In this document: positions 12,360 to 64,000 of the stretch, piece after piece | Position numbering within the stretch: the first letter of the stretch is position 1 | Layout: every line of letters starts with the position of its first letter | From: Blasia pusilla | Lineage: Eukaryota | NCBI GenBank assembly: GCA_050084515.1 | Contig: CM114271.1 | Span: 14,446,001 to 14,510,000, forward strand | Reading direction: 5' to 3' | DNA length: 64,000 nt | Translations under genes and position numbers: made by a program | Notes under the pieces: model-generated | Told to the model about the DNA's origin: nothing | What the model saw: only the letters and a program-made list of their open reading frames with translations | The model's database searches: none

Positions 12360-13081
12360 TGCCCTGAGAGCAATCGCTTTAGTGCTTCACGAAATCGTCG
12401 ATCTCAGTCGCAGGTGAAGCTTGGATTCCGACACTCCGATGACAAAAGGTTCACTCTTTCTAACTGCCGTCAACCCAGAGTGAGACAACAGTAGACTTCC
12501 TGTTCGGTAGCCCAGCTTTACGACGCCATCTCAATTGATAAGTGTGTACTTAGAAAATCTACAGGGAATTGGAGCGGACAGCCACGAGATTGGAAGGGCC
12601 CCAGTACACCTCCCATGATGTGATACTAGCAAAAGAAAAAATTAAATCATATCCCACACAGACCGTCCACTACCAAGGATATTGGCACAGGAAATACCAG
12701 AGTGCTGAGAAGCCACGGTAAATGAAAGAAGAACTTCACGCAGGGATGTCTCATGTGAGGACCAGATCTCTGCAAAGGAGAGTTCATCAGAACGATCATC
12801 GAGCGCAGCAATTACCATGTGTGGCTGCCGCCGCCGCTGCTGCTGCTGCACGCATCACTGGACAAACTACGGAGAAATCAATTCACATGCGGGACATGAC
12901 CATATCGTGGCTTCTGGTGCTTCTACATGGAAGAAGCATCACACGACAATATTCAACGACTGGAAGTAGAACAAAAACGCCGCAAACCCGGCCGCAACGC
13001 TCCCCGCAGCCTCACAGCATTCTCCTCCATTCGACCCAAGCGACGATTCTGCTGGCTTGACTCGACTCGAAGGCGTAGTCT

Positions 13082-21587: not shown

Positions 21588-22215
21588 TATCACATCTTAG
21601 TAGACGATAGGTAGAGATCTATCGTGGCAACGACATAGAGAGCCATTGGACTATCATGAGTGTAACTTCGTTCCGAGATGTCGGATGAGGTTGGCGACAG
21701 GTCTGTCGCGTCGGGAAGAACATTTATGGAAATTTCCCTATTTTGGTTTTAGTCCATCATGTGACCCGTTGATGGAGTCAATGGTTACCCGGTAATCTTT
21801 GCACAGAGGTTACCCTTGGTAGGGCTATTTTTGGGGGGAAGAGCCTTTTGGCTCTTCCCAAGGGTATAAGAGAGGAAGAGAGGGCTTTCTCAAGCGATCT
21901 TTCTCATGTTGGGCTGTTGGAGCACCTCTCTTGTCATGTGTGAGGTAGGACTAGGGTGCTAGCGTCCGGTTCTGCTAAGACCACATGGTGGACGAGGTTC
22001 GATATGTCGATGTAGATTGAGGAGTGAAGTTTTAGGCTGGGTGTGCAGTTTTTACTACTCTTATGGTTGTGGGGGCGGTTGTGGGATCTCAATGTATATG
22101 TGTGAGTTTTTTGGTTTATGGATGGATCGACCTGTGTGTTGGGAAGATCGGTGTTGTGTGGTGTGTAGATGTGACCAGCGATGTGGGTTGTGAAGCGATG
22201 TGTATGCGCACAACA
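21588..22215 (+). mobile_element. Family-Y solo A-B terminal unit
   Basis: Starts TATCACATC (TG mutated to TA) and ends GCGCACAACA. A is about 21588-22063, B is 22080-22215. Collinear with 45941-46580. Confidence 0.85.
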
Positions 22216-32853: not shown

Positions 32854-35467
32854 CTACATCACTGCCCTTTCCCCTTGTTGGCACGGCCCCATGTGTATAT
32901 TTATGTGGTCAGGGTTCATACTCTTCACCCTACAGCACTGCCTTCGTGGATTCTGCGCACAAACCAAACGGACTCAAGTTTACGTTCTCAGAATTCAATT
33001 AGCTTCATCAGTTTGATGAAGCTAACTTCATACCCACTTCATCAAAGTGCTTTTCAAACCTTTCACATCATAGCACTCGTAGCTCCAAACACAAATTGAA
33101 ATGAAGCCTTCCCCGACTGCTGTCAAGCAATGACCTAAACTTGAAAGCTCGAGGATGGGATGAGATTAGCGGGAAAAAGAAAGGAACCTGAAACCAATCT
33201 TCTTCAACTGGTTCACTTTCCACGAATATCTTGTCCACAAGAGATAGGGGAAGGAGCTTTTCGTGGCAGCCTCTCACTCTGTTTGGCCTCTCCAGCTTCT
33301 CATACGCGCTGTACCTGAAGGTCTCGTTCAACACTTTCACATCAAACAAGTAGTAAGGTGCCGGCTCATCACATATCTCTTTGGCCCTGGATCGAGTGTT
33401 CAATGGGAAAGCATACGACTCTCTCCTTTTATGCCAGCTCATGAAAGTAAGCATAGGCACTTCCAGCTCATGAGGTGGAACAAAGCCTTTGTAGACGTGA
33501 ATCACATATCCCCATGAAACCGAAAACGACCACTGCTTTTCTGAGTCGTAACAGATGGACTGCTGAAGAATGTTGTGTGGGTCAACATTGATAGCCTTTT
33601 GAAGCGTCTTCAGGGACTGAACACGCTTCTTGCCGGGGAAAAGCGAGTGGATTGCCTCCAGGTGATGGAGAGAGAGGATAGGAGCCACCGGGTGTGCTGT
33701 GAGAAATCCGCTAAGATCGCCCCTTAAATCGACCTGTGCATATGGAGAGGAGAGTACAGAGCGTCAGTGACACCATATCTGATATGAGGAAATACGCAAG
33801 AACCAGCTTCAGAACCCTCGGGGATCATCGACCTAACCGGTCCAAATTAAGACTGAACTGCACCACAACTTCATTTTTTCTTAGAATACGATGTTTCAAA
33901 GCCGTTTGTTTGGGTGCGGGTCTCAGACGCATCAGCTGCAAGTCACCGTGAAAAGGCAATCAGAAGCTGAATTTTTCAGACATGACATTTATGGCCGCAA
34001 GGTCACAAGAAAGTAGGCCGCTCCACCAGTCTAGATGTCACCCGTATTTCCACAGGAAACGCAAGAACTTCGGATTGTCAACCATGGTTCAACGAATATT
34101 TTTCACCAATCAGCAGGTAGACTAGCATATATCCACCGGCTCTCTCCTTCTGACGATTGGATCACGCGAAGCAGTCGTCACAGAGATGTGCACAGGACCT
34201 GATGGTTCTAAAGGCCTCCAGGTACGAAACCGTAGAAACACCCCTTCATGGCAGACATAACACATGACCCCCAGCCAGGTCTTTGTCTCGGATGGTAGGA
34301 TAATGTGATCAAGCCGTCCTTAAAAAGTGCTTAGGATCTGAGAGATTTCAGAGCCTAAATCAACCCAGGAATTCCGGTCCAGGAGTCTGGAGTCCACTTC
34401 AAGCTCACAATAGGTCGCCCTCGATGTGAAGCTGAAAGAACCTGGACGGCCAATTCTAAACACGCATCACAGACAGCAAAACACGGAAAATCCTTCTTGC
34501 ACATAACACTGCAGGACTCTCTCTGTGAAGGACAGGGATCGACCTGGTGGAAACCCGGCTCTTTCGTGAGTGGAACCCCCAGCTCACTCATGCAAGCCTT
34601 CATCCGGTCATCGCTGCCGAAAAGCCAACTGTACCTCTCCATGCACTCGTCCTGGATCTCGGAAAGCTCCTTCGCAAGAGCATAACTAATGGCGAAACCG
34701 CCACCACCATACGCCATGTTGTAGCTAAACAACTGGTTTTGTATATGATCTTCGGAGTTACTTCCGATGTACCATCTCTTTCTGTGATCGTACTTGCTAA
34801 GAACCTTCACCAAATTCTCTGTGAAGAAAAATGTGTCGTCGTCTCCCATCACAAACCAGTCCACATCGGGCAATCCTAGTCGGAAAGATTCCGACACAAC
34901 GCGTGAGATCCTAATTGCTGCCTTCCGACCCCTTCGATGCGTGTACTTGAAATGCGATATATCCTCGGAGACTCTGTACGGAGGGTCACCGACAGTCCAG
35001 TTGCTCCCCAAGTCACGCTCCGTCCATATGTAACCTCTCGTCTCTGGCTTCCACCATACTTTCAGGAACTGGCTCCGGTTAGTCCACAGATCAGCAGATG
35101 CTCCGATTCCGAATACAATTCGATCAATGCTCGTCTGTCTGAATTCTTCCGACACACTGCGAATCTGCCTGATCTCCGCCTCCGAGCTTTCATTCACGAG
35201 AATTAGAGACGACAAAGCTTCCACACTTAGTCTACCAGTCAATCGGCCACCACGAGTCGCTTTCCGGAATTCGCAGGCTTCATCATCGCAGTGAGGCGAC
35301 CCGTAGGTCCAATAAGGATTGCTGCTCACCAGCAAAAGAAAGACATATATGCAAGAGCAGGCGCATCCTATTCCAATCATCACGCTCAAGCGCGACGAAA
35401 ACAACGCCACGATCTGTTCCATCCACCCCGACTGCGCCTGCTGCTTTCCATGCTTACCACCCGCCAT
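32854..35467 (-). CDS. DUF604 / fringe-like glycosyltransferase, copy 2, 522 aa
   Basis: Exons 35467-34544, 33733-33188, 32952-32854. Same intron positions as copy 1, and exon 2/3 lengths are identical (546 and 99 nt). All motifs intact. Confidence 0.93.
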
Positions 35468-36369
35468 TTTCCGCAACGCAACGTCCCTCCGATCCGCCTC
35501 GAAATCGTTGATCCCTTTCGCAGACGAACCCGCTCGAATTCCCGCACTCCGATGACAACCCTCTCCTCGCTACTCCCCCCGGCTCCTCATCAAGTCACAG
35601 TGACACCGCAGTAGAATTCCCGGAGGGTACGCGATCCTCGCCCCCGCCAGATCATCTCCGGATCGAAATGCTTATGAAGTCTACAGGGAAGTGGAGCGCA
35701 GGACCACGACATCGGAAGACACCGAGGACTGGACAGCGCTCCCCGAACACGGCAAGCGCTAGAAAACCCGCATATTAAAACTCCGGATCGATTGCACGAG
35801 CCCAGCCGAGCCGAGCCGAGCTGAGCTGGGCACATACAAAGAAGCTACGAGCTCGGTCGCCCCCCGGGAACGGCGTAGTCATGGGAAGCAGCAGTTGGCT
35901 CATATGGGCGATCGGAATAAGATCGCTCAAGTGATGGCGCGCGAGTACAGGAGCAAAATAAATGAAATGAAATTAGCGTGAGGAAAGCTCATTGGATTCG
36001 TCCGGATCGTACCGATGACATTACTTCGGGTAATTGCTTAACCCACCCCCCCCCCTCCTCCTGCGGAGAACGTTTGCTATGTCACCCCTCATTCACGGAA
36101 AAGGTCCGATTAGGGCTTTAATAAAGGAGGCTAATTGGTGATTAGCCACGATGCAACTATTAGCGTCTGGATTATGATTAGAGTAATTTTACCATTGGCT
36201 AGGTGTCGGAATCTATATTATTGTTAGAGAGTGAGATCATTTTTCTTTTTGACACGTGTCCTTTTTAGCCAATTGAATCATTAGCTATCTAAGGCAATCG
36301 AATCGTTCCAATCCCATTGTACATATAGGATGGGAAATTCAAAATTATACATCTGTGCACAGACACCGA

Positions 36370-39765: not shown

Positions 39766-39971
<206 letters not shown>

Positions 39972-40215: not shown

Positions 40216-43200
40216 GGTCACATCTTATTTTGACGTAGGTAGACTTCTATCGCGTCGACGGTATAGAGAGTCCCCGGGCTATTCGGGTGTAACTTCGTCC
40301 CGAGATGTCGAACGAGGTTGGTGATAGGTCTGTTGTGTTGGGAACGTCATTTATGGAAATTTCCCTATTTTGGTTTTAGTCCGTTAGATGATACGTTGAC
40401 CGAGTCAACGGTCACCCTGTAACCTATGCACACACGCTACTGTTGGTAGGGATATTTTTGGGGGAAGAGCCCTTTGGCTCTTCCCAAGGGTATCATAGTA
40501 ATGAACGCCTCTCTTGCATAGACGTGTGTGGGTGTGTAGCAGTAGTTAGGGTGCTAGCGTCCGGATTCCCTCATAGCTATGATGTGGATGTAGTTCGATA
40601 TGCCGATGAAGATCAATGATCGGGGAGATCCGGGGTTTAGAGTAAAGCTAGCCGGTAAAATTCAAGAATTACCGGCTGATTTTAAAAGTGCCTATGAAAA
40701 ACCCGTTGGATTCGAGCATGTCCTTTGTATTTGTGTCTGAAAACCGGTTCAAAAATGGGGATTATTGTTTCCGACTAGACATTCTTGGCAATGTACCGGG
40801 TCCCACGAGAAAACTCCCTGAACCCTGATGTAGATTCATGAGTGGAGTTTTAGGCCGGGTGAGCCGGTTTTACTACTCTTGATTTTACATGAGAAAGATG
40901 TCAGGGGGCTGGTGGGAATTCTTTGTTTGCAAGTAGGCAAGCAAGTTGCCTCGGTGGGGAGCCCCATGAGACGTGTGTGTGGCGTTTTGGGCGTTGTTTT
41001 CTGTTTGGAAGATTGTGCGTGGGAGCGCTGCTCATTTTTCTCAGATTTTCGCGGGTAACGGATTAGAGTAGAGCAGTAGGAGAGTGGCGGACAGGGTGCT
41101 CGAGTGTAGCATTGATGGGAGAACGGCGCATGTTAGGAAGGAGAGGGTTTGCCTTGCAGCCGCTGGGGTTGTTAAGTGAAGACTAGCTAGGTCGTGGCCG
41201 GTCTAGGGTTAGGTCACGGGCAAGGGACCGGAGGACCACGGAGTCAACAGCCAAGGGTTGTGAGGTAGCAGACAGGAAAACAGGACAAGAGAAGAGCTGC
41301 GTGGCAATACGGGGGGGCAGCGTATAGGGTCGCGTGCCCACATACTGATGGCCAAGAGCCGGGCAGCAAGGCAAAGTATGCCGGATCCGGGAAGCTGCAT
41401 AGGGCAGCACACCCGAGCGGGGTTTGAAGGAGTTGAGGATGCACAAGGGAATCCGCAAGCTAGGGCGCCGGGCTGCGGGAGTAGTAGCCGGAAGCTGAGA
41501 GTGTGAAGCTGGGGTTCGGGGACAAGAAGGTGCAGAGTACAGGGCTAGAGTTGGGAAGCAGAGGTTTAGCAAGACTGCATAGGTATGTGTGCCAAGGACT
41601 AAGGTGGTAAGGCATATAGAGGCAGGTAATGTAGGTACCGAGGTACCTCGTAGTAAGAGTGCGGGTGAAGGAAGAGAAATTATGGCTCCATAGGGATGGG
41701 CGCTGGAAGATGTGAGCGTGGAAAAAGGGGATAGGTACAACCAAGTGGGAAGAAAAGAAGAGAGAGCTGCAGAGGCTCAAGGGAGAGTGTTTAGGGACCC
41801 GGATGAGCTCCTAGGTTCACAGATGGAGGAGGGAGCCATTATGGCTCCAAAATTGGTGGAAGGAGGGAGGGCCATTGAGGCCAGAAATTCGGGTGAAGGT
41901 GTGGAAGGAGCAAGGAGCTCCAAGTGCGCAGGAGGGTCCAAGGGAGTCATTATGACTCCAAAGGTGGAGGAAGTTGCATGGGCACATGTGTTTGCATAGG
42001 GCCGCTTGCCTAAACGGGTAGAGACAAGCAGATGGAGGAGAGCGTTGGACGTAGTAGAGGTGACTTCACGCAGTTGGAAGGCCGTCATGGTTGTAGGACC
42101 GGCAAGGTTGAGCAGTGAATGTGGTATGTTGGATTGGAGATGGTTGGTGATTGGAGAGTTACATGGTGGGGCCGTCCAGCGTGGTACTATAGCTACGTTG
42201 TTGAGTGGGCATGCGTTGGGATTTTCGGAGTCGAATGAGAGATTCAAGATGGATAGACTTGAGGCTTTGAGCCAATTGATGGTGAGAGTGTGAGCTACAT
42301 CGATAGTTCATGACTGAGTACTGGAGGTGGAGACGCAAGCGCTGATGTCGACGGGTTATCTACATCCGTTGACGAGAGGTTTGACGTGTTGTTCGAGGAG
42401 AGTGTCGTGTTGCGGAGGTTTCCGCACCACATGGAGGTGTGCGTCTTGATGGATTGTTAGTAGGTTGGAGGGCGTGATTAGGTTACTCATTCGAATCCCT
42501 TTTCTTGCACTTGTCGTGTGTCATTGAGAGTGTTGGGTATCGGGTAGTTGTTGGTGGTAGATGGGTGTAGCGATGGCGACGAGTGTAGACTCCTTTCATG
42601 TGTAGCATCTTGGTGGATATACGGCGGTTTCCGAGTAGGGGTCGCGTGTATGACCCAAGAGTGTCTGTAGTTTAGGTGAGTTAGTGGGAGGCTCATGGTG
42701 AGCCCAAGTGTTGAGTGTGCGTGAGGTCGGGTGTATGATCACGGATTGACATTAGCATAGGTGAGCTAGTGAGGAGTGTGGGAGACTCTTGGTGAGTCGG
42801 AGTGCTTGAGCGGGTGAGACACGGTTGTCATCATGGCGTTCTTCTAGGGTTTGGAAGAACGGGGTAGTACGAGCACTGGTAGTGGAGTGACACGGAGTGA
42901 TGTGAGGTATCGAGGGGTTTTGAGTGAGGAACCACCCCGACTCCCATCAGTGGCTGGATTGTCATCACTAGACAGTGGGTTTGGTGACGGTGATACGTGG
43001 AGAGAAAGGGACGGTGATACGTGGAGAGAGATGGACGACATGGGCCATCAGGGCATGCGTCTTTTCACGGGTGCGGTAGGCATCATAGATTTAGATGACT
43101 TCATCCAGGAGTTTGACATGTGGTGTGACTTCCAGGAGATACATACCCCTATGCGATTCAACTCTTTTATGGCATGGAAGGGGTTATTCCAGCACTTGGA

Positions 43201-46200
43201 GGGTCCACCGATGGATGACTACATGGAGTTTTGATCTCTATATTTTATAGGGATTGATGTCTGGAGGGTGTATTGGGCTCCAAGGTATATGTTCACTAGT
43301 GGTCGCAAGGCGTATGATGGGATAGTGAGGGCAGAGAGACCTTCACCATCACCCCGGGGACTAGATGGAGAGGATAGCAGTGAGAGTTGTGAGGTGGCAG
43401 AGACCTCTTTTGGTAGAGGACCACCGAGTTTCACTCCTATAGTGGAGTTCTTCCGACAATTGGGGAGAAGCTTCCAGGGCATGCCAACTGACAAGCTGAA
43501 GAGTCTACAAGATTTTCAACGGAGATCAAATGAGAGTCTGAAGGAGGCATTCACGCACATGCGACGGTTGATTGTTGCCACATATGGGGTGACTGAGGCA
43601 TCGTCAATATAGTATTGGTACGTGGTGCTAGATGAGGAGCTACGGAGGAGAGTTTGGGATGCGATGTTGCTTCATACGGCAAAGCCCACATTGAAGGTGG
43701 TCTTCGAGTTGTTTGAGCGAGTAGAGCTCAACATGAGTGAGGAGCAAGTAGTGACCACGAGATTTTTGCAGGATTTGACGAGTCGACGAGTAGGAGTAGA
43801 CCCACAGGTGTCCTAGCATGCACCAATACCATGAGGGCGGGCCGATGGGCCCAAAGAGCATAGCGAGTATTGTGAGCCAATGAGGCAACGGCTCGTACTG
43901 ACATATGTTTCCCAACAAGGATGAGGGTTGGCTTATTGGATGTGTGGTGGGTCACATAGGGAGAGGGACTGCCCACAATATGGGAGAGGGCCACGGGCAG
44001 CTCCGATTTCTCAAGAGCCACAAAGGATGGCCCCACCACAATTGCAGTGTGATCATTGTCACCGATAAAGTCACACTAGGAATAGGTGTTATGATCTTCG
44101 CCATGAGGTACGTCCAGAGGTAGGCAGAGGACTTGGGGGCGAGAGAGTTGGTGGCGATCAAATAGTGGGTGATCGTGGTGGTAGAGTGCCATCACCTCTC
44201 ACAAGAGATGGAGGACGTGCACTTGATATAGCGCTCCTTACGCGCATCGATCAGTTGGAGTAGAGGATGGTTGCCATGATGATGATGCAGCTACAGGCAG
44301 GCCCAAAGCTGAGAGTAGCTAGCGTGGCGCCAACCTCCACATCTTACCACGATGCTGTAGGGATGGGATTTATGTGTAGCGCGGCTCAAGTTGAGGCAAC
44401 TTTGGTGGTGACTTGGGGTGTTGCAAGAGTAACCAAGCCATCAAGGGATGGGGTTGAGATTGACCCACGAGAGGGGACCGATGGGCGTTGTTACAGGCAT
44501 TGCATACATCGTTGATGGTGCCTTGACAACCGGTAATACCCATGGGTGGGACAGATGTGTCGACATCACGAGGAGTTAGAAAGACGACTCCTATGCCGAC
44601 TCGAGTGGAGCTAGTGTTGACCACACTGTTGGATGTGGCCACTAGGGTGAGCCACGCTCCGTTATTTTCCGTTGTGGAGTTGGCGACGTTGGGAGTTGGA
44701 CCAACGGAGGTGTTCTGACTGGCGCCACATTGTGTGAGCGTGGAGAGGTGACAGCCTCTCGTTCAGAGGTAGTTGAGGAGGTGGTGGACTTGCCCTCAGA
44801 GCAAGAGCTCTGGACATCCCCCACTCAGTCATGGCATGCGACGACGGCAAAGTTGGTAGATATGCCAACTCGGCTAGCGATAGAGCGAGCCATGATCACA
44901 CCAGGTGTGGTGTTGTTGAATAACCGAGAAAAAGTGTTTTGCTTGGTTAGTCCCACAGGTACGGTGTACCACTTGCAGCGCGTCCTACTTGATTTGAGAG
45001 CGCAACCCTTGATACTAAGGAAGGTGGCGCGTGTTTGGCGTTGGGTTTACGGAAAGGCAACATTAAGCATTGTCCCTTTCAGATACAGACGTCTATTGGG
45101 GGCGTATCACCCATGTAGTACATGACTCGAGAGGAGTTGGTGGTTATACTCCAGCCAGAGCATGAGTCGGATAGTGCAATGGTGCGCACTCGGGCGATTA
45201 CGACACCTGCAGAGTCATATGATGTTTTGGCTAGGGAGTACGGTGTTGTATCCCTCTGGTTTTATTCTGGATTTTTGGGAGGAGAAAGTTTCTTATCAGC
45301 TAGGGTGGCGATCAAGTGATGGATGGATGAGCCATCTACCGGTGTTGTTTGCAAGGAGTAGTGATGGTCAACCACGTGAGGATACGGTGACCACATTGGC
45401 AACATTCATAGGTGGTGTTTGCTGATCAGAAGGGTTTGGGGAGAGGAGCACACATGCGAAGGGCATTCCCGTAGCGGATAGTCGTGCGGAAAGACATGCC
45501 AGGGTGGGTGTCTCTTCCCATGGTGCGAAGCTTTGTTATTGTTGTTGGGGAGCATTGAGATGCGTGGAGTGCAGACGAGCACTCCACGCATGCATGGAGC
45601 CGCGCCTATGTTTGGAGTAGGGTATGAGAGTGTTAGATCTCTTCCGACGGATCAACATGGCATGTTGCTATAGTGTGAAAATGTTGCGGGAACAACGGCA
45701 CCGATGGCGCTAGATGTGCATAGGATAGGAAATCTTGTCAGATACATATGTGTGTGCTATCTAGAGTTAGGGGGACCCAACTGCAAGTTAGGATGGTGGT
45801 TGTGGGATCCCATTTTATATGCGTGAGTGTATTTCGTTTATGTATGGATCTACCCGTATGTTGGAGAAGATCGATGTTGTGCGGTGTGTAGATGTGACCA
45901 GCGATGTGTGTTGTGTAGTGATGTGTATGCGCATGACAAATGTCACATCTTATTTTGACGTAGGTAGAGTTCTATCGTGTCAACGGCATAGAGAGTCAAC
46001 GGGTTGTTCGGGTGTAACTTCGTCCCGAGATGTCGGATGAGGTTGGCGACAGGTCTCTTGTGTCGGAAACGTCATTTATGGTGATTTCCCTATTTTGGTT
46101 TTAGTCCATCAAGTGACCTATTGACCAATTCAATGGTCATTCGGTAACGTGTGCATGCAGGTTACCGTTGGTAGGGCTATTTTTGGGGGAAGAGCCTTTT

Positions 46201-46580
46201 GGCTCTTCGTAAGGGTATAAGAGTGAGGAAGATGGCTTTCCCAAGCCATCTTTCTCATGTTGAGCCTTAGCAGGGCCTCTCTTGCATAGACGTGTGTGGG
46301 TGTGTAGGAGTTAGGGTGCTAGCCTGCGGATTCCCTCATAGCATAGGGTGGATGTGGTTCGATATGCCCATGTAGATTCATGAGTGGATTTTTAGATCGG
46401 GTGAGCCGGTTTTACTACTCTTGGTTTTTGATGCAACGCTATTGTGGGGTCCCAGTGTATATGCGTGAGTGTATTTCATTTATGTGTGGATCTACCCGTA
46501 TGTTAAGGAAGATCAATGTTGTGTGGTGTGTAGATGTGACTTGTGATGTGGGTTGTGTAGCGATGTGTATGCACATGACA
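40216..46580 (+). mobile_element. Family-Y element: A1 (40216-40889), PBS-like site, long leader, decayed gag and protease, B1 (45801-45938), AA, A2 (45941-~46428), B2 (46443-46580)
   Basis: A1/A2 and B1/B2 are direct repeats. Gag remnants at 42850-43820 and protease-like VLLDLRAQPL near 44980. Inserted as one block in an X A-repeat, flanks CCTT / ACTT. Confidence 0.85.
40614..40827. mobile_element. hAT-type MITE (214 bp) inserted in A1
   Basis: 8-bp TSD ATGAAGAT / ATGTAGAT (1 mismatch); imperfect TIRs CAATGATCGGGGAG vs CAGGGTTCAGGGAG; absent from A2. Confidence 0.8.
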
Positions 46581-49380: not shown

Positions 49381-52300
49381 TGTCACGTCTTTTACGATAG
49401 ATCGGTAAGATCTAGTAGAGCGCCTTTGCGGATAGTGGAGGATAGGCTTAGGAGGTCAAGAATGTCTTGCTGAGGCCTCGAGGAAACTTGAGAGAGCAAG
49501 TTTCTCGGGGCCTTCGTTTCGGCTCATTTGGAGCCATATTGAGGAACTTACTATTTTAGGCAAGTACCATTTTGCGCACTGCCAAATTTTGTATAGGAGA
49601 ATGAGACGTTGGGCTTTACGACAATCCCCTTCAATTTTTACAAGAAATTTCCAATTAAAAATATTTTTTAACATTGTCGTAGATCGTGAAGCTGTGCACG
49701 CAGTGCAACAGACGGTGCGCGATTTGAAGTTGCAAGCAAAAAGAAATGGTCAATCTTGCAAAATTGCCATTGCTAGGAAATTTTTAGGGTTAAATTATTC
49801 AAACCCTAAACCAACCGCCGCGCCGGCAGCGGCCGTCGCCATCAACGGTACGATGTCGATCGTCAATTGTCACCGTCAACGATCAACCGTCACCGTCAAC
49901 GGTCCACCGTCCATCCTCGGCCGTCGCCGTCGCCTAGCGTTGCTTAGAGCCGCGTTGGGCCGTTGTCCACCCTTGGTTGCCATTGCCGCCATTATGGAGT
50001 GGAGGGTCTTCCACGACGACCATTGATTCTCTGACTTTTGCCGCCACCACGTACTTTGTTTTGGCCGCCACCGTCATCGCAGTTTCATCATCAACAAGTG
50101 ATGGGAGGTGACCTCGGGTTATGGTGTTTCAGTTTTCATTTCATGCTGCTATGTTGTGATTGGTAGCTGCTCGACGACGATCGAGTATCGTGTCGTGACG
50201 CCCGTAGCTGCAACGCACCGCCGATTTCCGTGCCGTGCCGCTCGTGACTGCACCATCTAGTTGGGTTTGTCCCAAGTTCAACCCTGTGGTTGAGTTCTTT
50301 GCTGAGTTAAGGGAGAGCTACCAAGGGGTACGGACGGAGAAGTTGTGGAGCATCCACGACTTCCAGAGGCTCCTGGTTGAGAGTTTGCGTGAGGCTTACA
50401 CTCGCTTGCACCGGTTGATCAACGTCACTCAGGGGCTGACAGAGGCTCAGGCTATCCAGTCATGGTACACCATGCTGGATCGGACCCTGTGGACATGGGT
50501 GCGGGAAGGGGTGCTTCTTATGAACACCTCCCCTACATTGAGGGGATGTTTTTAGGACCGCCGAGAATATTGAGTGCAAAACATGGCGGAGGAGAGCGTA
50601 CACCATGGGTTCTAGGCGAGAGTAGTCACGATTGTCTACACCACCCGTGCTGCAACGTGGACTCCAAGATAGGTTGATTGTGGCACCACAAGCTCAGGGA
50701 GGATCCTAGGAGGCCGTGCCGTAGAGATCTACGCCTTCATATGAGGCTCAGCAACTGCCACCTACAATTACTTGTTGGTCATGTGGTGGAGTCCATCATG
50801 AGCGTGATTGCACTCGTCAGGGTCATGGACGTGTGCCTCAGCATGGAGGAGATGGTGTTGCACTAGGAGGTTATTAGTATGACTATTGTCAAAGGTATGG
50901 TCACACATGCGCTAGGTGTTTACACCTTGAGTCTCATCAAAGTTCCCAGAGAGTTGGTGATGTTGTTGGTGTGCAGATACGGAGGGCGATGGGAGAAGCG
51001 AGTGCAACGACTCTTATTGGTGATGCTCAGGAGGAGCATGTATTGAGCACACTGTTGGGAATGGCCACAATTGTGTAGCGCGCTCCTTTAGCATGGCGGA
51101 GATGCCCGCTAGACCGGCGATAGAGTGTGACATGGCTTCTCCTTGTGGTTTGTTGTTGGATAATTGGTCTTCCAGTTGGTGAGTCTTGGAGGTAGAGCTT
51201 TTAGTCTGAAGCGCATCTTGTTGGATTCAGGAGCGCAACCCCTCATGTTGGGGAAAGCCGCATTCAGAGGATTGGGCTTGACGAGAGTCGATGTGGAGCG
51301 TTGTCCATTCTGGATACAGACATCCTTGCGGGGAGCAAGTACCACATAGTATATCACCCGACAAGAGGTCTTGGTGAGGATTCGCTCGGGACATCCTATA
51401 GATGAGTGAGTTGTGCGAGCCAAGGCGATAGTGACTGATGCAGAGTCCTACGACGTCTTGGTTGGTAGAGTAGTGTTATACCCGATGGGGTTTTCCTTGG
51501 ATTACATGGAGGAGTCAGTGTCCTACAGACCAAGATGGCAGTCACGTGATGGGCGCCTTAGTTCATTACCCGTTCGATTCATAGGTGCAGTGATCAAGCG
51601 ACGGCTAGGAGAGATGGCAACCTTAGCAACATTTAGCAACACCATCACTTGGCCTAGTGATTTCATTAAGGTACATGTCCATACACAGGATATGCCGGTT
51701 TTTGACATTTCTATGGAGAGGAGTGTCATGGTCGCCGCATGAGTCCGTGGAGGAGAGGTGCCGCTTTGGGGCTCGACTGAGGAGCTTTGACGCTTAGCCA
51801 ATGAGCATGTGCAGACCACGTGGAGCAAGACGTTTGCACCAGAGCAAGACGGATCTGAGGAACCCAAGGTAGTCAAGAGTGCTATAATGACGCCCTTGGA
51901 CACCACATACATTGTGTGGCGTATCCCAGAGGAGGGTATTCGGGTATTGGATCTCTTTGGAGAGATCAGCACTGGGTCACCTGGTGTTTTGCAGGCACGA
52001 GTACACTTGCAGCAGTACTTGTATGTGGAGATTGATGATTTTGCAAGGCACGCTTCACTTCATCATGTGGGGAAGTTACGCCTCTGCTTTCCCAACTTGT
52101 TGTCTGCATCCGCCATCCAGGGTTACCAGAGTTCCCTACCGAGGGACACTTCATTGCTTGGGGTGCAGGACTTGGAGCGGGTAGGGACCATAGACTTGGT
52201 CATTTCTGGTTGGCCGTATCACGGCCAATCGAGTGCGGATGAGGGAACGGGTTAGCTGACACTCGGTCCAAGTTGTTTTGGGAGATGATGCAGATCTTGC

Positions 52301-53919: not shown

Positions 53920-54565
53920 TGTAGTGCGCATACATATTGCTAAACAACATACATCGCTATCACCAAACACACACACAAACGCGCACGATCCCATGCTAAC
54001 TCATGGCATCCAAACAACGAGACAAGAGGTACCAAAATATCTCTTTGTAAAATAGGATCCAATCTCTCTCACAACACCATAGTTCTCATATGTGTGCAGT
54101 CACACATGTCTCTGTCAATGTCAAACCAAACCCACTCTCTGAATGAGAGGCTAAGGTTACACACATTAGCTAACCAAGACCATAGCTCTGTCGCCTCATG
54201 CCAAGACGTTCAACAAAGAGAGAATGAGATCTCAAGCTCTCTCTCCTTGAGGTATATCCCTCTCCTCTCCCAAGCTCTCTCCGTGGTAACCTATTCTCCC
54301 AAGTCACCTCCTTGGCTCTTGACCTGATGTAGGAGGTCAAGGGCCACTTACCAAAAATAGAAAGTTGATCATATACTCAAAATGGTACTTACCTAAAATA
54401 GAAAGTTCCTCAATATGGCTCCAAATGAGCCGAAACGAAGGGGAAACCTGCTCTCTCAGGTTTCTCAAGGCCTCAACAAGTCATCCTCAACCTACTGAGC
54501 CTGTCCTCCACTACCCATGAAGGTGTTCTACTAGATCTCACCCATCTATCCGAAAAGACGTGACG
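53920..54565 (-). mobile_element. Family-X solo A-B unit
   Basis: Minus strand: GTCACGTCTTTTCGGATAG ... TATTTTACA (A end, 54046) joined to AAGAGATATTTTGG ... GCGCACTACA (B end, 53920). Confidence 0.85.
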
Positions 54566-57500
54566 TATGACCAAAGTACTCAATCTGTTCGTAGAAGAAT
54601 TTGTCATGTCTTTTAGGATAGCTCGGTGAGATCTAGTAGAGTGACTTCTTGAGTAGTGGAGGACAGGCTCAATAGGTTGAGGACGACTTTGTTGGGGAAA
54701 ATCAGCGCGGAAGAGCTGCCGAATTTTACGTAGGAGAAAGAGACATTGGGCTTTACGACAGTCCCTGTAAATTTTTACTGGAATGTCCGATTCTAAATAT
54801 TTTTTAATAGTGTCGTAGATCGTAAAACTGTGCAGGCTGTGCAACAAACAAATTTGGAGTTGCGAGCAAAAACTTATGGTCAATCTTGCAAAATTGCCAT
54901 TGCTAGGCCATTTTTCGGGTTAAATTGTTCAAACCCTAAACCAGCCGCCACGCCGGCGGCGGCCGTCACTATCATAGTCCCCATCAACGGTCGGCCATCG
55001 AGGATCAACCGTCACCATTGATGGTCAACCATCACTGTCAATGATCGGCCATCACCATCAACGGTCAACGGTCCACCGTCCGTTGTCCACCTTTTGGTTG
55101 CCATTACCGCCGCTACGGAATGGAGGGTCTTCCACGACGTTCGTTGATTCTCTGACTTGCATCTCCACCACCTACTTTGTTTTGGCCGCCACCGTCATCG
55201 TAGTTTCGTCATCAACCAGTGATGGCAGATGACCAATGTCTCTTTCTCCTACACAAAATTTGGCAGCGTTTCCGCGCTGATTTCTCCCAACGAAAATGAC
55301 ATCACTCATCATCAACCACTAAAGTAAAAACGGATGGGGATTGTCGTAAAGCCCAGGTTGGGGACCGTGTTCCCCGTTCAGCGGCTCATGGGAGTGCTCA
55401 CCGGAGCAAGGGCTGCTTTCATCATTCCTTGCATTTGCCGATTTTTCGTGTGGAAGAGTGGCGCACGGAAGCGCTGCCCAATTTTTGACAGGGATTGAGT
55501 ATGGGGTTGGGTTGCCCCATGCTAGTGCTCACGGGAGCACCATGTAGCTTGCTGATTTGTATTTTTACAGATTTTACATTTTTTTGGGAGAAATCAGCGC
55601 GGAAACGCTGCCAAATTTTGTGTAGGAGAAAGAGACATTGGGCTTTACGACAATCCTCGTCCGTTTTTACTGAAATGTTTGATTCTAAATATTTTTTGAT
55701 ACTAGGGTAGATCGTAAAGCTGTGCACGTTGTGCAACAAACAGTGCGCAATTTGGAGTTGCGAGAAAAAAGTTATGGTCAATCTTGTAAAGCTGCCATTG
55801 CTAGGCGATTTTTAGGGTTAAATTGTGCAAACCCTAAATCAGCCGCCACACCGGCGGCGGCCGTCGCCATCATAGTCACCGTCAACGGTCAACAGTCAAC
55901 CATCACCGTTGACGGTCACTTATCACCATCATCGGTCGGCCATCACCATCAGCGGTCAACCGTCACTGTCAACGGTCCACCGTCCATTGTCCACCCTTTG
56001 GGTGCCATTGCCGCCATTACGGAGTGGAGGGTCTTCCACGACGTTCGTTGATTCCTTGACTTGCGTCGCCACCACGTACTTTGTTTTGGCTGCCACCGTC
56101 ATCACAGTTTCTTCATCAACCAGTGATGGCAGGTGACCTTCGGTTATGGTGTTTGAGTTTTGATTTCATGCTGCTATGTTGTGATTGGTAGCCGCTCGAC
56201 GACGATCCAGTATCGTGCCATGATACTGGATCGTCGTGTCAATGAGATGATAGCCTGGTCGATTTGCCGCACCACGCCGCGTGTTACCGCACGTTACACG
56301 TCTCGGGGAGAGAGAGTGTAGATTGAGTGCCGCATGTTTGGGATGAGTGATTGAGGGATTCCTCACCAGGTTCAGAGTGATCGGGTGAGAGGGGCACGAG
56401 GGTCATCACGGAGTCCGTTCGGGACTTTGAGAGGCGAGGTGGTGAACCCGAGAGTAGCTCTAGAGGTTTTACGCGGAGTGGCGCGAGGTTCCGAGGGTCT
56501 CCACGTGAGGGACCACCTCGACCTCTTTCTGTGTCATCGTCAGACAAGGGGGAGGGTGTAGAGGAGTTTGTGAGCACATCGCCACACATTGTGAGTGGTC
56601 CTATCAGTTGGGCGTACGAGATGGACGACCGGGGTAGAGGACCGCGTAGGTTTTCAAGTGCAGTAGGCACGATTGAGTTGCACGATTTTATAGCAGAGTT
56701 TAGGAGTTGGTGCAACTCCCAGCGGGCCAGGAACTCTAGAGAGTTCAACCCGTTCTGACATGGAAGCGGTATGTTCCAAAGCATTTAATGGGGCGCCCAT
56801 GGACGATTACCATGAGTTCTCTCAGAGATATGCATGTGAGATCAAGGCGTGGAGGCTCTACTATGACCCACATTATGTGTCATGGACGGAGCCGTTCCCA
56901 GATGAGGAGGAGGAGTCAGGAGAGGCTACTTCCTCTTCCACTAGTGACGTTTTAGGAGGAGTCACTCGCACGGGAGCAGTTGCACCATCTAGTCGGGTTC
57001 GTCCCAGGTTCAACCCTGTGGTTGAGTTCTTTGCTGTGTTGAGGGCGAGCTACCAAGGGGTACGGACGGAGAAGTTGCGGAGCATCCAGGAGTTCCAGAG
57101 GCGCTCGGGTGAGAGTTTGCGTGAGGCTTACACTCGCTTGCGCCGGTTGATCAACGTCACTCAGGGGATGACAGAGGCTCAGGCTATCCGGTCATGGTAC
57201 GCGATGCTGGGCCGGACCCTACGGACACAGGTGTAGGAGGGGGTGCTTCTTATGAACACCTCCCCTACGTTGAGAGATGTTTTTAGGACCACCGAGAACA
57301 TTGAGCGCAACATGGTGGAGGAGAGCGTAGCCACCATGGGTTCTGGGCGAGAGCAGTCGTGCTTGTCTATAGCAACGTGGACTCCGAGATAGGTCGACTG
57401 TGGCACCACGAGCTCAGGGAGGGTATCAGGAGGCCGTGCCACAAAGACCTATGCCTTCATATGTGGCTGAGCAGTAGTCGCCTATTATTACTTGTTGGTC

Positions 57501-59323
57501 ATGTGGTGGAGTCCATCATCAACACGATTGTACTCGTCAGGGTCATGGACGTGTGCCTCAGCATGGAGGAGGAGATGGTGCTGCACCAGGAGGTTATCAG
57601 CGTGACTATTGTCAGAGGTATGGTCATACACGCGCCAGGTGTTTCAGTTTACATCCTGAGTTACGTCCGGACCGAGGGCGAGGAGGGCACCGGCGAATAG
57701 CGGTCGGGGTGGGCCTAGAGATCGTGCACCAGGTGGTCAGTTGGGGGCGAGGCTGGGAGTTGCCCGACAGGGTGGTGGAGCTGCCCATGGAGGAGGTAGA
57801 GTACCACCACCTAGACGCGCCGAGGGAGACGCCAAACGTGAGGCTGGGATGGCTGCTCAGATACAGCAGCTAGAGGAGCAGATTGCCGCTATGGCATTGA
57901 GGTTACCAATGCCGGATCCATCGCATCGACATCATATGGAGTAGCCAGAGATCTGGAGGATCCTGGATGGATGTGCGGGGTTGCCCAGATGGAGGCCACC
58001 GCAGTTGTGACGCGTGGAGGAGCCGCAGAGTTGGATCCACAGTGAGGGGAAGCCAGAAGACAGATTAGGCTTCCTCACTCTTTCACGTTGTTTGAAGCGA
58101 TGAGGATCCCATCGATGGGTCCTCATCAAAGTTCCTGGAGAGTTGGCGATATTGTTGGTGTGCAGGCACAGAGGGCGATGGGAGAAGCGAGTGCGACGAC
58201 TCCTATTGTTGATGCTCAGGAGGGGCATGTGTCGAGCACGTTGTTGGGGGCGGCCACCGTTGTGTGCCGCACTCCCTTATTTTCTGCTTCCGATGTTATG
58301 ACGTTGGGGGGTACGCCCGCCGAGGCTTTTTGGCTGGCTGCTTCACTATGTGAGCACGGAGTTCGAGTTCCTGCATCACGTTCAGAGGTGATTGCAGAGG
58401 AGGTGATGGACCTGCCCTTGCAGCGGATGCTCGGACCGTCCACGTCAGATTCATGGCAGGCTGCGGCTGCTTGGATGGCGGAGATGCCCGCTAGACCCGC
58501 GATAGAGCGTGCCATGGCTTCTCCCGATGTTGTGTTGCTGGATAACCAAGGAGAGGTCTTCCAGTTGGTGAGTCCTGGAGGTAGAGCTTTTAGTCCGCAG
58601 CGCATCTTGTTGGATTCAAGAGCACAACCCTTGATGTTGGGGAAAGCGTCATTCAGAGGATTGGGCTTGACGAGAGCAGATGTGGAGCGTTGTCCATTCC
58701 GGATACAGACATCCTTGGGTGGAGCGAGTACCACACAGTATATCACCCAACATGAGGTCGTGGTGAGGATTCGCCCGGGACATCCTACAGATGAGTCCGT
58801 GGTGCGCGCCAAGGCGATGGTGACTAATGCAGAGTCCTACGACGTCTTGGTTGGTGGAGGAGTGTTATACCTGATGGGGTTTTCCCTGGATTACTGGGAG
58901 GAGTCAACGTCCTACAGACCAGGATGGCAATCAGGTGATGGGCGCCTTAGCTCATTACCCGTTTGATTCATAGGTGCAGTGATCGAGCAAAGGCCAGGAG
59001 AGATGGCGACCTTAGCAGCATTTAGCAGTGCCATCACTTGGCCTAGTGATTTGATTGAGGGACATGTCCATGCAGAGGATACTCCCGTTCCTGACATTTC
59101 TATGGAGAGGAGTGTTATGGTAGCTGCATCATTCCGTGGAGGAGAGGTGCCGTTGTGGGGCTCGACTGAGAAGCTTCAACGATTGGCAGATGAGCACGTG
59201 CAGACCGCGTGCAGCCAGGCGTTGCACAGGCGTGGCGGGTGCGAGGAACCCGAGGTAGCAGGGAGTGCTACGATGACACCCTTGGATACCACACCCATTG
59301 TGTTGTGTACCGCGGAGGAGGGT

Positions 59324-60260
59324 ATTCGAGTGTTAGATCTCTTTGGAGGGATTAGCACCGGGTTAGCTGCTGTTTTGCAGGCAGGAGTGCGAGTACAGCA
59401 GTACCTCTATGTGGAGAGTGATGATGTTGCGAGGCGCGTCTCACTACGACATGTGGCGCAATTACGCCTATGTTTTCCCGACTTATCATTTGCGTCCACA
59501 CTATAGGGGTACCAGAGTTCCCTACCGAGGGATATTTTGTTGTTGGGGGCGCAGGACTTAGAGCGGGTAGGGACCATTGATTTGGTCATTGCCGGTTGGC
59601 CATGTCACGGCCAATCGAGTGCTGGACGAGGCAGCGGGTTGGCTGACACTCGGTCCATGTTGTTTTGGGAGATGTTGAGGGTCTTACGGCAATTGCAGGA
59701 GCACCAGTCTCGTTCTCCAACCTACATTCTGGAGAATGTGCCGATCTTAGGAGACTCCAGGTCACGGGTGGTGACGAGTGCTCATCAAGTGCGTGCCTGG
59801 ATTGGCCCAACAATGTTCTTGGATGCGGCAGTGTAGGTTCTAGAGCCCATCGCCCGCGTCTATGGTGGACCAACTTGGTGCCCCATGCGGTGTTATGGAG
59901 GGCGTATGCGAGAGTGGAGCGCCCCTCCCATTTGTTAGTGGATTCCATTCTGGATCCAGGTCGTCGATCACAAGCAGTGAGGCACGATGATCGACCACCG
60001 CTGATTGTGGTCAACAGGATAGGTAGGCCGCGGGCAGCCTTGCCCACGTTTGTGAGATTTCCTGCTTCCTATGCATACAAGGAGGCCAATCCTGGCTTGG
60101 TTTGGGATGACCAGGTTCAGCGGTTGGTGGAGCCCAACGCCGACGAGAGAGAGCAAACGATGGGATTTCCCACAGGAGTGACGGCAGTACCATCAGTGTC
60201 AGAGGCATCATGATGCCATATCTTGGGTCAGGTGATGGACCTGAACTGCTTAACATGGAT
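59324..60260 (+). pseudogene. DNMT3-like cytosine-C5 methyltransferase domain inside Pol, copy 2
   Basis: I IRVLDLFGGISTG; II YLYVESD; IV DLVIAGWPCHGQS; VI YILENVP; VIII AHRPRLWWTNL; IX EREQTMGFPTGVT; X ILGQVMD. Broken by stops at 59504 and 60211 and a 1-bp deletion near 59829. Confidence 0.93.
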
Positions 60261-61474
60261 CCTCAGCTTGGGAGTGGTTGAGCAGCGTCGTATGAGATCG
60301 CGACAGATCACAACGGTTGCGTTGGTGAGCCCCATGCCTATCGAGACGGTGGAGGCAGTGGCTGGGGGCGAGACCGGAAGGGATCTACGCACCAGGGGAG
60401 ATCGGGAGAGACACCCTTGGACTTCTTGGGATGTTTTGCAGGTACGCAAGGAGATGATAGCCACAACATCGAGCATGGTTTCGGGCACTGCACGTGGAGA
60501 AGATCACAATTTGTAGTTGGCTGCAGGAGAGCGGCCGAGTGTTGTTGTTTGAGACGGGGTTGCACCATAGCAACCACCGATACCCGCGCCGGAGAGTCCT
60601 ACCGTAGTCACGATGGAGACTTGGGAGCCAGATATGGGCCCTAAGTTGACAAGAGGAGAGCGGCGCCGAATACATCAGTTCCTCAGGAGTTATAGGAGTT
60701 GCTTTGCGTTTAGCATGGAGGATTTGGGTACGCTGAAGGGACCGGGGATCCGCATTGAGTTGTCGAGTGATATGCCGATCTTCCGACGACCCCTCTGGTG
60801 TCTGATGATATGGAGAGGGCTCTGATTCAGAGTAGGAGCCAGGACTTGGTCGGAGCACGACTAGTAGAGATGTCGCATGGGGAGTATGCATCTGCCACTG
60901 TCATGCTCGCCAAGAAGGATGTGCATGGCAACTGGACGGATAGGCGGATGTGTGGGGATTACCACCCTATCAATCGGCAGACAAAGTCCAATAGGTATGC
61001 CATGCCCACCCCTGAGGAGATCTTTGATGCAATTGGTCACGCAAAGGTCATCAGTTCATTGGATTTGCGAGCCGGATACCATCAGCTTCCTATCAGATTG
61101 GAGGATAGGTAGGAGACGGCATTTTGGGGCATCGATCCTCACGGGAAGGATTGTTTGTACCAGTGGCGGTTCTTACCATTTGGGTTAAAGAACGCCTCGG
61201 GTGAGTTTCAGAGGGTCATGGATAGGATCTTGGCTGGTCAGGATTTTGCTAGGTGTTACATTGATGACATTGTAGTCTTTAGCGCCACGGTTGAGGAGCA
61301 TGACCGACATCTAGAGGAGGTGTTTCGACGATTGCAATTACATGGGCTGAAGCTACATCCAGGCAAGTGCAAGTTCTTCTACAACCAGATTGAGATTTGG
61401 GTCATACGATATACTCAAGGGGCCTTGGTGTTCAGCAAACGAAGGTAGAGGCTATCTCACGCATTCCACACCCT

Positions 61475-62855
61475 TGTCGTGCGCATACATGTCGCTACAC
61501 AACATATATCGCTAGTCACATCTACACCACACAACACCGATCTTCCCCACACACGGGTCGATCCACACATGTACAAAAATCAACTCATACATATACATGG
61601 AGATCATACAACCGCCCCCCTAGCTGGCAGTTGGATCCCCCCAACTCCAAATAGAAAATATCATATCTCTCTGACACGACCTACTACCCTATACACATCT
61701 TGGACATATCCATCGTCCCGTGTGAACCACATCAAGAGGGGGGTTTAGACATGACATATGCCATCCTCGAGAACAACCATCACATACCTACATGGTGGCT
61801 GCACCCCTCGCACATCCGTACAACATACACCTCAAGCCTACACTTACCACTGCCAAGCTCGGATCCACCGTCCCATCAACGTTCGGAAGATGACATGGCG
61901 CACAATTTCCGAAATGATCCTTCCAAACCATACCATCCCGTCCCTCCAACATGAGGACTCTCGTCGGTAAAACCTCGCGCACACGTAGGATCGTGCGCCC
62001 TGCAGTGACATCTAGCACACGTAGGATCGTGCCGCTTGCTGTAAATACACGTAATCTCCACGATGAAACCTCCTAATCCCGGACGGGTGCGTTTAGGGTC
62101 CGCGCCCATCCGCGTCCGTCAGCGCCCGTCGCCGCCCGTCTGTCGCCCGTTGCCGCCCGTCCTTCGCCCCTCGCCCGTCGCCGCCGCGCCCTAACCCTAG
62201 ACCGGCCGCGACCTAGCTAGCCATCTTTACTTAACAGCCCCCCGACGGCTGCAAGACCCAAATCTTCTTTTCTTCTCTCTCTCAACACCCTCACTCGCGT
62301 ACACCCGACGCCTACTCCGTACTACACTCTGCCGTTGTGCCCAATTCCTGTGCACAAAATCTGAGAAAAACGGACAGCACCAGCCCCCTGCCATCTTTCT
62401 CATGTAAAAATAAAGAGAAGTAAAAACGGCACACCCCGCCTAAAACTCCACTCCTCAATCTACATCGGCATATCGAGCCTCGTCCACCCTGTGCTATCAA
62501 GGAATCCAGACGCTAGCACCCTAGTCCTAGCTTACACACATACAAGGGAGGTGCTCCAACGGCCCAACATGAGAAAGATGGCTTAGGAAAGCCATCTTCC
62601 TCTCTTATATAGGGTTGGGAAGAGCCAAAAGGCTCTTCCCCTAGAAATAGCCCTCCCCTTGGTAGCCTGCGCGCACAGGTTACTAGGGGCGGGTGACCTG
62701 GTCAACAAGTCACCCGGCTGTAAAAGATCTCAACATGAAAGTTATCAAAAACGAATGGACCTATCCTCAACCTCATCCGACACCATGGGACAAAGCTACA
62801 CTCAAGATAGTCCGCTGGCTCCTACGCCCTATCCACGATAGATCTCGGCCTATCA
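61475..62855 (-). mobile_element. Family-Y-related short element nested in pol: A (62855-62403), PBS-like site, short leader, integrase tail plus PHD, PPT-like tract, B (61610-61475)
   Basis: TGATAGG...CACGACA termini. Host pol is continuous across it (ISRIPHP | SDVSRV). Confidence 0.88.
62390..62611 (-). promoter_or_regulatory. Element promoter (TATATAA at 62611-62605) and putative self-priming pair
   Basis: 16-bp perfect inverted repeat, 62567-62582 vs 62390-62405. One arm starts 29 nt after the TATA box; the other lies at the TTTTACA end of A. Confidence 0.7.
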
Positions 62856-64000
62856 CCTGCTCAGATGTGAGCCGGGTTCCCGCATTCATGGGATTGGCGA
62901 ACTTCTATCGGCGATACGTCAAGGGATTCAATTTGATTGCGAAGCCACTAACCTTGGTGACCAAGGTGGATCACGAGTGGCACCAGGGGGATGAGCAAGA
63001 GCGAGCATTTCAGTTGCTCAAGGAGAGGTTGACGTCTGCGCCCATCTTGAGGAGACCGATCAGGGGGCGTCCTTTTCAATTGCACACAGATTGAAGCATA
63101 TTGGGACTTGGAGCGGTGCTCACCCAGCATGATGATGAGGATAGAGAGTTCATGGTGGCTTGCGCTAGCCGCTCGAACAACGCTGCAGAGGCAAAGTACA
63201 ACTCGTATGAGGGTGAGTGCTTGGCTGCGGTGTGGGCTGTCACGCATTTCACGTGTTCCTTATTCGGCGACCCCTTTACCATCATCACTGATCATCAACC
63301 ACCGAAGTGGTTGATGGAGTCCGACAAGCTTACAGGGAAGCTTGCGAGATGAGCTCTGTTGTTGCAGGAGTATGATTTTCAGGTGGTACATAGACCTGGG
63401 ATGCTCAACCAAGATGCAGATGGGTTGAGTCGTAACCCATGCCCAAGTCAGCGAGATGCGACTGGAGCTTGATGGCATGGAGAGAGTGATGAGGAGTTGG
63501 TGCTAGGATGGCACGCGTCAGCCTATTTAGGCATGTTGGCTATGGAGAGCCATAGTGTGGAGACTTCGATGGCGAGGTCTAATGGAGAGTCCTTGGATCC
63601 CGAGGCCAGTGAGGAGACGACAGATGGCCGAGATATTCATGATGATGGAGTAGTCTTGGAGTACCTTCGTACTGGCAGCGATGCGAGCACTCTGGGTGCT
63701 AGAGAGCGAGATCGGATCCTACAACGGGCCAGACGGTTACGTTGGGAGGGGACACATGTTTTGAGGGTTTGGGAGGATGGCAAAGTACGCGTAGTGCCGC
63801 ATCCTTTGTAGAGAGCACGATTAGTGTAGCATGCCCACGAGGAGTTGGGTCACTTTGGGGTGAAGCGGACGTACAGCTTGCTCCAGATTCAGTATTGGTG
63901 GCGAGGCATGCAGACAGACGTTGAGCATTTTGTTGCCTAATGCATGGTGTGTGATCGGGTTCGAGCCTCATTCAATGCTCCGACTCCACACTTGCATCCA

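Follow-up and report, generated by a model that had tools for sequence, protein, structure and literature searches.

The window analysed here is a 64-kb stretch of the Blasia pusilla genome (GCA_050084515.1, contig CM114271.1, positions 14,446,001 to 14,510,000). Near its end, on the minus strand, lies a 1.4-kb internally deleted element of family Y, inserted in the pol gene of an element of the sister family X. An empty site in locus L050 shows the CCCT target of this copy, and its lost right end is most simply explained by a short microhomology deletion with the pol of the host element. The full element is a Ty3/Gypsy retrotransposon of ~9.5 kb that encodes gag, protease (PR), DNA methyltransferase (DNMT), reverse transcriptase (RT), RNase H (RH), a DDE integrase (INT) and a PHD finger, and is built as A1-internal-polypurine tract (PPT)-B1-A2-B2. 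The 62-kb copy carries a perfect inverted repeat, which we interpret, with a probability of about two in three, as the signal by which a Ty3/Gypsy element with DNMT and PHD primes itself, its long terminal repeat (LTR), composed of B and A, being integrated in a permuted form.

The inverted repeat and self-priming

On the minus strand, TTTTTACA is followed directly by TGAGAAAGATGGC and not by TGG, as the initial annotation of this stretch had stated. The maximal exact inverted repeat is 16 bp long (62390-62405 paired with 62567-62582), and the TATATAA starting at 62611 lies 29 nt before the arm; both values agree with that annotation. The second family-Y element had also been described correctly: it carries TGAGAAAGATG at 40890 and GCCATCTTTCTCA at 46245, with CCATC 30 nt past the TATA at 46216. 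The 16-bp pairing holds for the 62-kb copy but not for the family, whose core is 14 nt. A search of the 390-Mb genome gave 443 copies matching the A end and leader. In the first 100 of those listed (manual count), the GGC of the 16-bp form occurred in 2 and the 14-nt ACATGAGAAAGATG was intact in 79; most listed copies end at ...GATG/TC. The role of chance was assessed by counting exact inverted repeats of at least 14 bp with arms 100-330 nt apart. Such repeats appeared in 2 of 20 first-order Markov resamples of the window, one in each; the real window contains 10 of them, and those other than the pair described here come from unrelated repeats. Genome-wide, the pair stands at a constant place in hundreds of copies.

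The initial annotation had suggested checking the arms for covariation as well as the primer-binding site (PBS) against host tRNAs, and both comparisons were made. Three families were found to carry different yet complementary arm/PBS pairs: CATCTTTCTCATGT/ACATGAGAAAGATG in Y; (CT)CATTCTCTCTTTGT/ACAAAGAGAGAATG(AG) in X, complementary without mismatch along 16 nt in 8 of 13 copies; and ACTTTTGGTGATTT/GAATCACCAAAAGT in the metagenome locus L177, which matches its A2 arm at 13 of 14 positions plus a G:U pair. The pairs differ from one another at 7, 7 and 9 of 14 positions with complementarity kept, and the arms are located ~28-31 nt past a TATA-like box in all three families. When the RNA was started at the arm, the predicted arm:PBS pairing was 0.92-0.98 in all five copies folded. 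Among single copies of family X, L112 shows matching changes in arm and PBS and L087 non-matching ones; neither was counted as covariation.

The PBS does not start with TGG. Compared with 23 host tRNA genes, which are a partial set lacking Met, it matched over 5-6 nt at best. Priming by a host tRNA fragment or another small RNA, with the inverted repeat serving only as a structural or regulatory hairpin, would fit the facts that the transcription start site (TSS) at the arm is only predicted and that the tRNA comparison spans those 23 genes. It is nevertheless highly improbable, because each of three unrelated PBS has its own complementary arm at TATA +28 to +31, in addition to the missing TGG and the short tRNA match. 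Self-priming is supported by the covariation, the lack of a tRNA match, the predicted pairing, and the A2/B2 joint described below, which lies exactly where the arm:PBS complementarity stops. Judged from these sequence features, family Y very probably self-primes, as had been proposed. RNA sequencing data (one study, three runs labelled with the same species) contained 1322-1462 reads each, mostly 90-95% alike, which run in sense orientation across the element, with 21 reads over each of both joints.

Several observations weigh against self-priming. The sole pile of 5' ends near A comprised 5 molecules at L037:625 in one of the three runs of fragmented RNA-seq, and it lies inside the TATA; the start is predicted 26 nt further downstream, at 651. 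The L177 A1 arm is decayed (2 changes), the match being to its A2 arm. A global fold of the entire 5' leader was not better than that of shuffled sequences (z -1.7), and a strict-filter scan of 11 metagenome stretches, including the A1 of L177 itself, found no arm/PBS pair. The partial tRNA set belongs here as well. When further primer families were sought in 25 old, ~70%-identical copies, only decayed Y-type pairs were found.

Copies with an extended PBS were also observed (33 genome-wide, 30 read). In several of them, the extension is complementary to what lies upstream of the arm, after which the leader resumes; others run into long inversions. Such copies fit a primer that was started upstream or plus-strand strong-stop DNA folding back on itself; a switch of chromosomal template from one arm to the other may also have produced them, and they were not counted as proof. 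The fold-back inversions in L258-L287 have the A end as their exact starting point, from which they copy back across the TATA region.

Element structure, end joint and attachment site

Examination of 20 ten-kb stretches downstream of A revealed the order A1-gag-PR-DNMT-RT-RH-INT-PPT-B1-A2-B2 in 9 (in 2 of these, the stretch ends before the element does) and A-internal-B in 2; the remaining 9 were deleted, interrupted, atypical or longer than the stretch. B was located directly upstream of A at 1 of 29 other loci, and that A was the second A of an element. In loci L036 and L212, the second A is followed by PBS and leader and not by B (tandem or mis-joined forms). Family X shares the A1-internal-B1-A2-B2 layout, as do the metagenome loci L177 (RT 44%, with DNMT and PHD) and L173. 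The metagenome relatives L173, L174, L176, L177 and L185 (RT 42-46%) have the PPT in common and B1-A2-B2 where intact; no DNMT match was found in L173 and L174.

Pfam matches were obtained for RVT_1, RNase H, Integrase_H2C2, rve, DNA_methylase (PF00145), which sits between PR and RT, and PHD, which terminates Pol. The best solved-structure relative of the RT was Ty3 RT (E 3e-55). No chromodomain and no tyrosine recombinase matched in the 22 open reading frames (ORFs) of one full copy, the whole genome not having been searched for a recombinase. The integrase triad D16, D76 and E111 is in an open frame (rve) of a different copy. Relatives of the RT and DNMT were named from liverworts, Sphagnum, Closterium and Klebsormidium, which points to a probable bryophyte host. 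In addition, gene models annotated as "hypothetical" or DNA methyltransferase in Marchantia, Calypogeia, Riccia and Sphagnum (P0122-P0144, P0153, P0159, P0216) were 43-69% identical to the DNMT region of the element; judging by this identity, they may be retrotransposon copies.

A1 is followed by ACA-TGAG..., and A2 stops short of ACA and meets the first base after the PPT. This A2/B2 joint reads TTTTT/GTTG in Y, TTTT/ATTGG in X and TTTTTTT/ATTTGG in L177. A manual count of the first 100 of 589 listed Y joints gave 77 exact TTTTT/GTTG and 5 differing in T-run length only; 3 keep ACA, 1 keeps A, 3 keep an extra PPT G, and 11 are otherwise different. These joints put the true A end at TTTTT. The A end at TTTTTACA given by the initial annotation is thus disfavoured, and the ACA that it assigned to the LTR belongs to the 14-nt pairing core. 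Its view of A as the R-U5-bearing part stands: A carries the promoter, R and U5, and the LTR is B+A. We infer that the joint fuses the two ends of a linear B-A-internal-B-A cDNA, one set by the primer and the other by the PPT. The priming signal therefore also accounts for the split repeats, a point missed by the initial annotation.

The position of the joint places the primer 3' end at nt 14, with an 11-nt primer plus later trimming as the other possibility. According to such a strict Tf1 geometry, the primer would be 11 nt long, U5 would end in ACA, a UGU:ACA duplex would flank the primer, and three bases would be trimmed at end joining. All three families can be parsed as 3+11 nt, ACA is retained in the 3 joints counted above, and the available text on Tf1 describes a cut between bases 11 and 12 with flanking duplexes (PMC7175516; 10.1101/2022.12.06.519325). 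However, trimming would have to take exactly three paired bases in ~9/10 of the joints and in three families while leaving the PPT end untouched, which makes this geometry doubtful. A 14-nt primer rather than the 11-nt one of Tf1 is favoured by the joints; of the proposed Tf1-type self-priming, the primer drawn from the element's own RNA is supported, and its 11-nt length fits less well.

The two B repeats of the same element share minority variants: 19 of 97 in Y (28 units; shuffled mean 4.1, maximum 12) and 38 of 144 in X (24 units; shuffled mean 12.0, maximum 34). Since this exceeds the sharing under shuffled pairing, a common template most likely gives rise to B1 and B2 in each cycle. A1 and A2 share 17 of 61 minority variants upstream of the arm, versus 5.1 when shuffled; downstream of the arm, sharing is not above chance (3/18 vs 2.3), which counts against the permuted scheme. 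Alternatively, the parent RNA might supply B2 and the A2/B2 joint, which would simply be copied, perhaps as in PAT/Ngaro-type split repeats; the likeness of B1 and B2 would then be due to gene conversion, without end joining of cDNA. The uniformity of the joint (the 77 exact cases) and the RNA reads traversing it are consistent with such copying. It is improbable, however, because the joint equals primer end plus PPT end to the base in three families, the joint variants consist of the bases adjoining each end, and copy-specific variants are common to B1 and B2.

The boundary between B and A has the form GACA-NN-TGTC, with 1409 exact matches versus 1 in the control; the 2-nt spacer is fixed by the pattern. 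The spacer is RY (purine-pyrimidine) in 95 of 100 listed B/A junctions. In those 95 it is GT, AC, GC or AT, all four being common in X and Y; this variety possibly arose when an ancestral GC was deaminated in its CHG context, the position being one that is lost upon integration. The two ends of the element, TGTC...GACA, are the halves of the palindrome GACA-RY-TGTC without the spacer. An exact 4-bp target-site duplication (TSD) was present in 8 of 12 elements; two others had one mismatch, one had none, and in one the end was mis-set. No TSD of 3, 5 or 6 bp was found among these 12. For 12 solo A-B candidates, the 4-bp TSD was exact in 7, had one mismatch in 3 and was absent in 2, one of which is no true solo. 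These sequence features suggest an integrase cut through the palindrome, staggered by 2 nt, and insertion of the two CA-3' ends at a distance of 4 bp. Integration at the B/A junction by a tyrosine recombinase acting in trans, as in DIRS-order elements, would agree with the A1-B1-A2-B2 layout of PAT, Ngaro and VIPER, and the recombinase scan was confined to the 22 ORFs of one copy. The TG...CA ends, the loss of the 2-nt spacer, the 4-bp TSD at varied targets and the encoded DDE integrase make this explanation very unlikely.

A difficulty for the permuted integration is its one-sidedness. PPT-B-A occurred 340 times and joint-B-A 3 times, all 3 being tandem A-B duplications (340:0), and among position-ordered junctions A preceded B in 0 of 30. 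A symmetric 2-LTR circle opened at either B/A site is ruled out by these 340 versus 0. A freely diffusing 2-LTR circle is insufficient, because two equal B/A sites should open alike, yet one permutation occurs. The site in the 5' LTR may be marked somehow, for example by earlier completion, by nearness to the end joint or by an end-to-end jump of the RT.

The following cycle can be proposed. The RNA would very probably start ~30 nt past the TATA in A1, and its first ~14 nt would pair with the PBS and be cut off to prime the minus strand. Ordinary LTR reverse transcription would then, with only slightly less confidence, produce linear B-A-internal-B-A with ends set by the PPT and the primer 3' end, as suggested by the homogenisation of the repeats within each copy. 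The cDNA ends are likely joined blunt to give the A/B joint, by a ligase or an RT jump, before or after integration. Somewhat less securely, the DDE integrase would cut GACA-RY-TGTC inside the 5' LTR, drop the 2-nt spacer and insert both halves with a 4-bp stagger, yielding A1-internal-B1-A2-B2. Finally, there is an even chance that an upstream decoy hairpin hides the second primer copy in read-through RNA. We slightly favour the broader view that, in a streptophyte Ty3/Gypsy lineage, the integrase attachment (att) site has moved from the cDNA ends to an intra-LTR palindrome, and that self-priming, end joining and integration from an abutted junction, similar to that of insertion sequences (IS), form the normal cycle of more than 1000 copies.

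The decoy is a partial PBS copy between TATA and arm. Its fold with the arm had z values of -5.1 in Y (0 of 200 shuffles), -1.7 in X, -4.2 in L177 and -5.8 in L173. When 45 upstream nt were added, the arm switched from PBS to decoy in both Y copies, under RNA and DNA parameters alike. The X value and the X copies, where the decoy won in 2 of 3 as RNA and 0 of 3 as DNA, tell against its role. According to the folding predictions, the decoy most likely masks the 3' primer copy in read-through RNA.

Comparison with known systems

In Klebsormidium nitens, the KnitGypsy-Dnmt3 element (de Mendoza et al., 2018; PMC5890265) shows, according to its Fig. 4c legend, a DIRS-like repeat arrangement with Gypsy domains. 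It resembles the present element in a DNMT inside the Gypsy Pol and in A-coding-B-A-B repeats, but the description is at the level of a legend that gives no priming or integration mechanism. The words "priming" and "circular" have no matches in the main text of PMC5890265, and "KnitGypsy" occurs in no other paper among the literature searched. A K. nitens RT matched at 45%, and no K. nitens name appeared among 132 DNMT matches.

In Tf1, the first 11 bases prime after RNase H cleavage (PMC7175516). Tf1/Tf2 and Tf1/sushi elements, in the sections available, share with the present element a PBS complementary to the predicted 5' end of their own RNA and Ty3/Gypsy enzymes (PMC7175516; PMC4600332; 10.1101/2022.12.06.519325). 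They differ in intact LTRs ending in CA beside the PBS, an 11-nt primer (Tf1) and a chromodomain, whereas the present element has split repeats, probably a 14-nt primer, a DNMT and a PHD finger. A three-duplex 'pretzel' leader is a further trait of that group; for the present element, the leader was folded globally (z -1.7). Plant Tcn1 chromoviruses, which are Gypsy elements of non-seed plants, are reported in the consulted part of Neumann et al. (2019; PMC6317226) with predicted self-priming in 83%, a 5-bp TSD and a chromodomain in 100% each, and a mean length of 6.4 kb. In contrast, our element has a 4-bp TSD (5-bp in 0 of 12), a PHD finger without a chromodomain, a length of ~9.5 kb, and split repeats instead of whole LTRs. 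With respect to Phygy, listed in its REXdb entry with a 4-bp TSD and a tRNA-Trp PBS, the element fits the TSD and not the PBS. Thus, it works like Tf1 but is by structure no member of Tf1/Tcn1, and belongs with the Gypsy-DNMT kind. Self-priming has already been predicted for the Tcn1 of non-seed plants, and the larger result is the permuted-LTR element.

In the accepted view, it is by the ends of their linear cDNA that LTR retrotransposons and retroviruses integrate. At the circle junctions of IS3, IS30 and IS256, a DDE enzyme opens an abutted end-to-end junction. The 2-LTR circle model of Panganiban and Temin dates from 1984; for retroviruses, it was given up and replaced by integration of linear DNA (PMC11054761). 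It resembles the scheme proposed here in a DDE enzyme opening an abutted, twofold-symmetric junction; the cut site of the present element differs in lying inside the LTR, with a 2-nt spacer, distinct from the cDNA end joint.

Split direct repeats otherwise define tyrosine-recombinase elements in the accounts available (PMC4157794; PMC6681497). PAT, TOC, Ngaro, VIPER and TATE are described there with the same A1-coding-B1-A2-B2 order and with solo A-B remnants (SIRE), but they use a tyrosine recombinase, whereas the present element has a protease, a DDE integrase, a PBS, a PPT and a TSD. In the literature searched, the coverage of which is incomplete, self-priming, end joining and an internal att site were nowhere brought together.

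If the proposed cycle is true, a circle-junction route once dropped for retroviruses would operate as a routine life cycle, and a worked model would exist for split direct repeats arising from ordinary LTRs. The sequence marks all point to a DDE integrase using an internal 10-bp palindrome, and the cDNA ends could be read as a joint in each insertion, which would record the primer length in vivo. Two old questions would become testable: whether circle-type junctions serve as routine substrates, and how A1-B1-A2-B2 repeats originate. Standard LTR finders would mis-delimit such elements, with no TSD around A1-A2 and with solos of the form A-B; hence annotation may be wrong for a large DNMT lineage, relatives of which occur in Marchantia, Riccia, Calypogeia and Sphagnum.

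Features of the window

The coordinates of the identified features are given in Table 1.

Table 1. Features of families X and Y in the 64-kb window.
Feature	Position	Strand	Remark
Primer-binding site, 14-nt core ACATGAGAAAGATG	62392..62405	-	16 nt with 62390-62391, a feature of this copy alone
Predicted self-primer CATCTTTCTCATGT, first 14 nt of the putative transcript	62567..62580	-	predicted TSS 62580
Upstream decoy arm between TATA and primer	62589..62604	-	predicted hairpin with primer only in RNA read through from upstream
Putative TATA box TATATAA	62605..62611	-
Repeat A (promoter part of U3, R, U5)	62406..62870	-	outer TG and right target duplication missing
Internally deleted body, leader fused to 3' tail	61622..62389	-	non-autonomous, A-internal-B form
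Polypurine tract AGGGGGGCG	61613..61621	-
Repeat B, 138 bp	61475..61612	-	GTTG right after PPT, ends GACA
Surviving 4-bp target copy CCCT in pol of host family-X element	61471..61474	+	empty site in L050
Host family-X element: gag, PR, DNMT, RT, RH, integrase start	56620..64000	+	past the window ends PPT-B1-A2-B2
Second family-Y element, full split layout, gag-PR remnants	40217..46580	+
Parts of second Y element			PBS 40887-40900; B1 to 45938; 2-nt spacer; A2 from 45941; B2 to 46580
Primer arm of second Y element, in A2	46247-46260		arm lost from its A1
Family-Y A-B remnant	21590..22215	+	PPT piece at joint
Family-X A-B remnant, arm CTCATTCTCTCTTTGT	53920..54564	-	partial PBS left at joint

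Besides these features, A starts of family X cut off at ~95-190 nt were found at 49381-50250 and 54602-56250; they then run into an AT-rich and then a GC-rich repeat with inverted ends (55233-55656). Positions 9950-12386 and 33068-35569 (minus strand) hold ~96-97% identical copies of another coding repeat, ~23 kb apart. At 39770-39970, the family-X repeat around the 40217-46580 element is closely flanked by ~200 bp of (CA)n.
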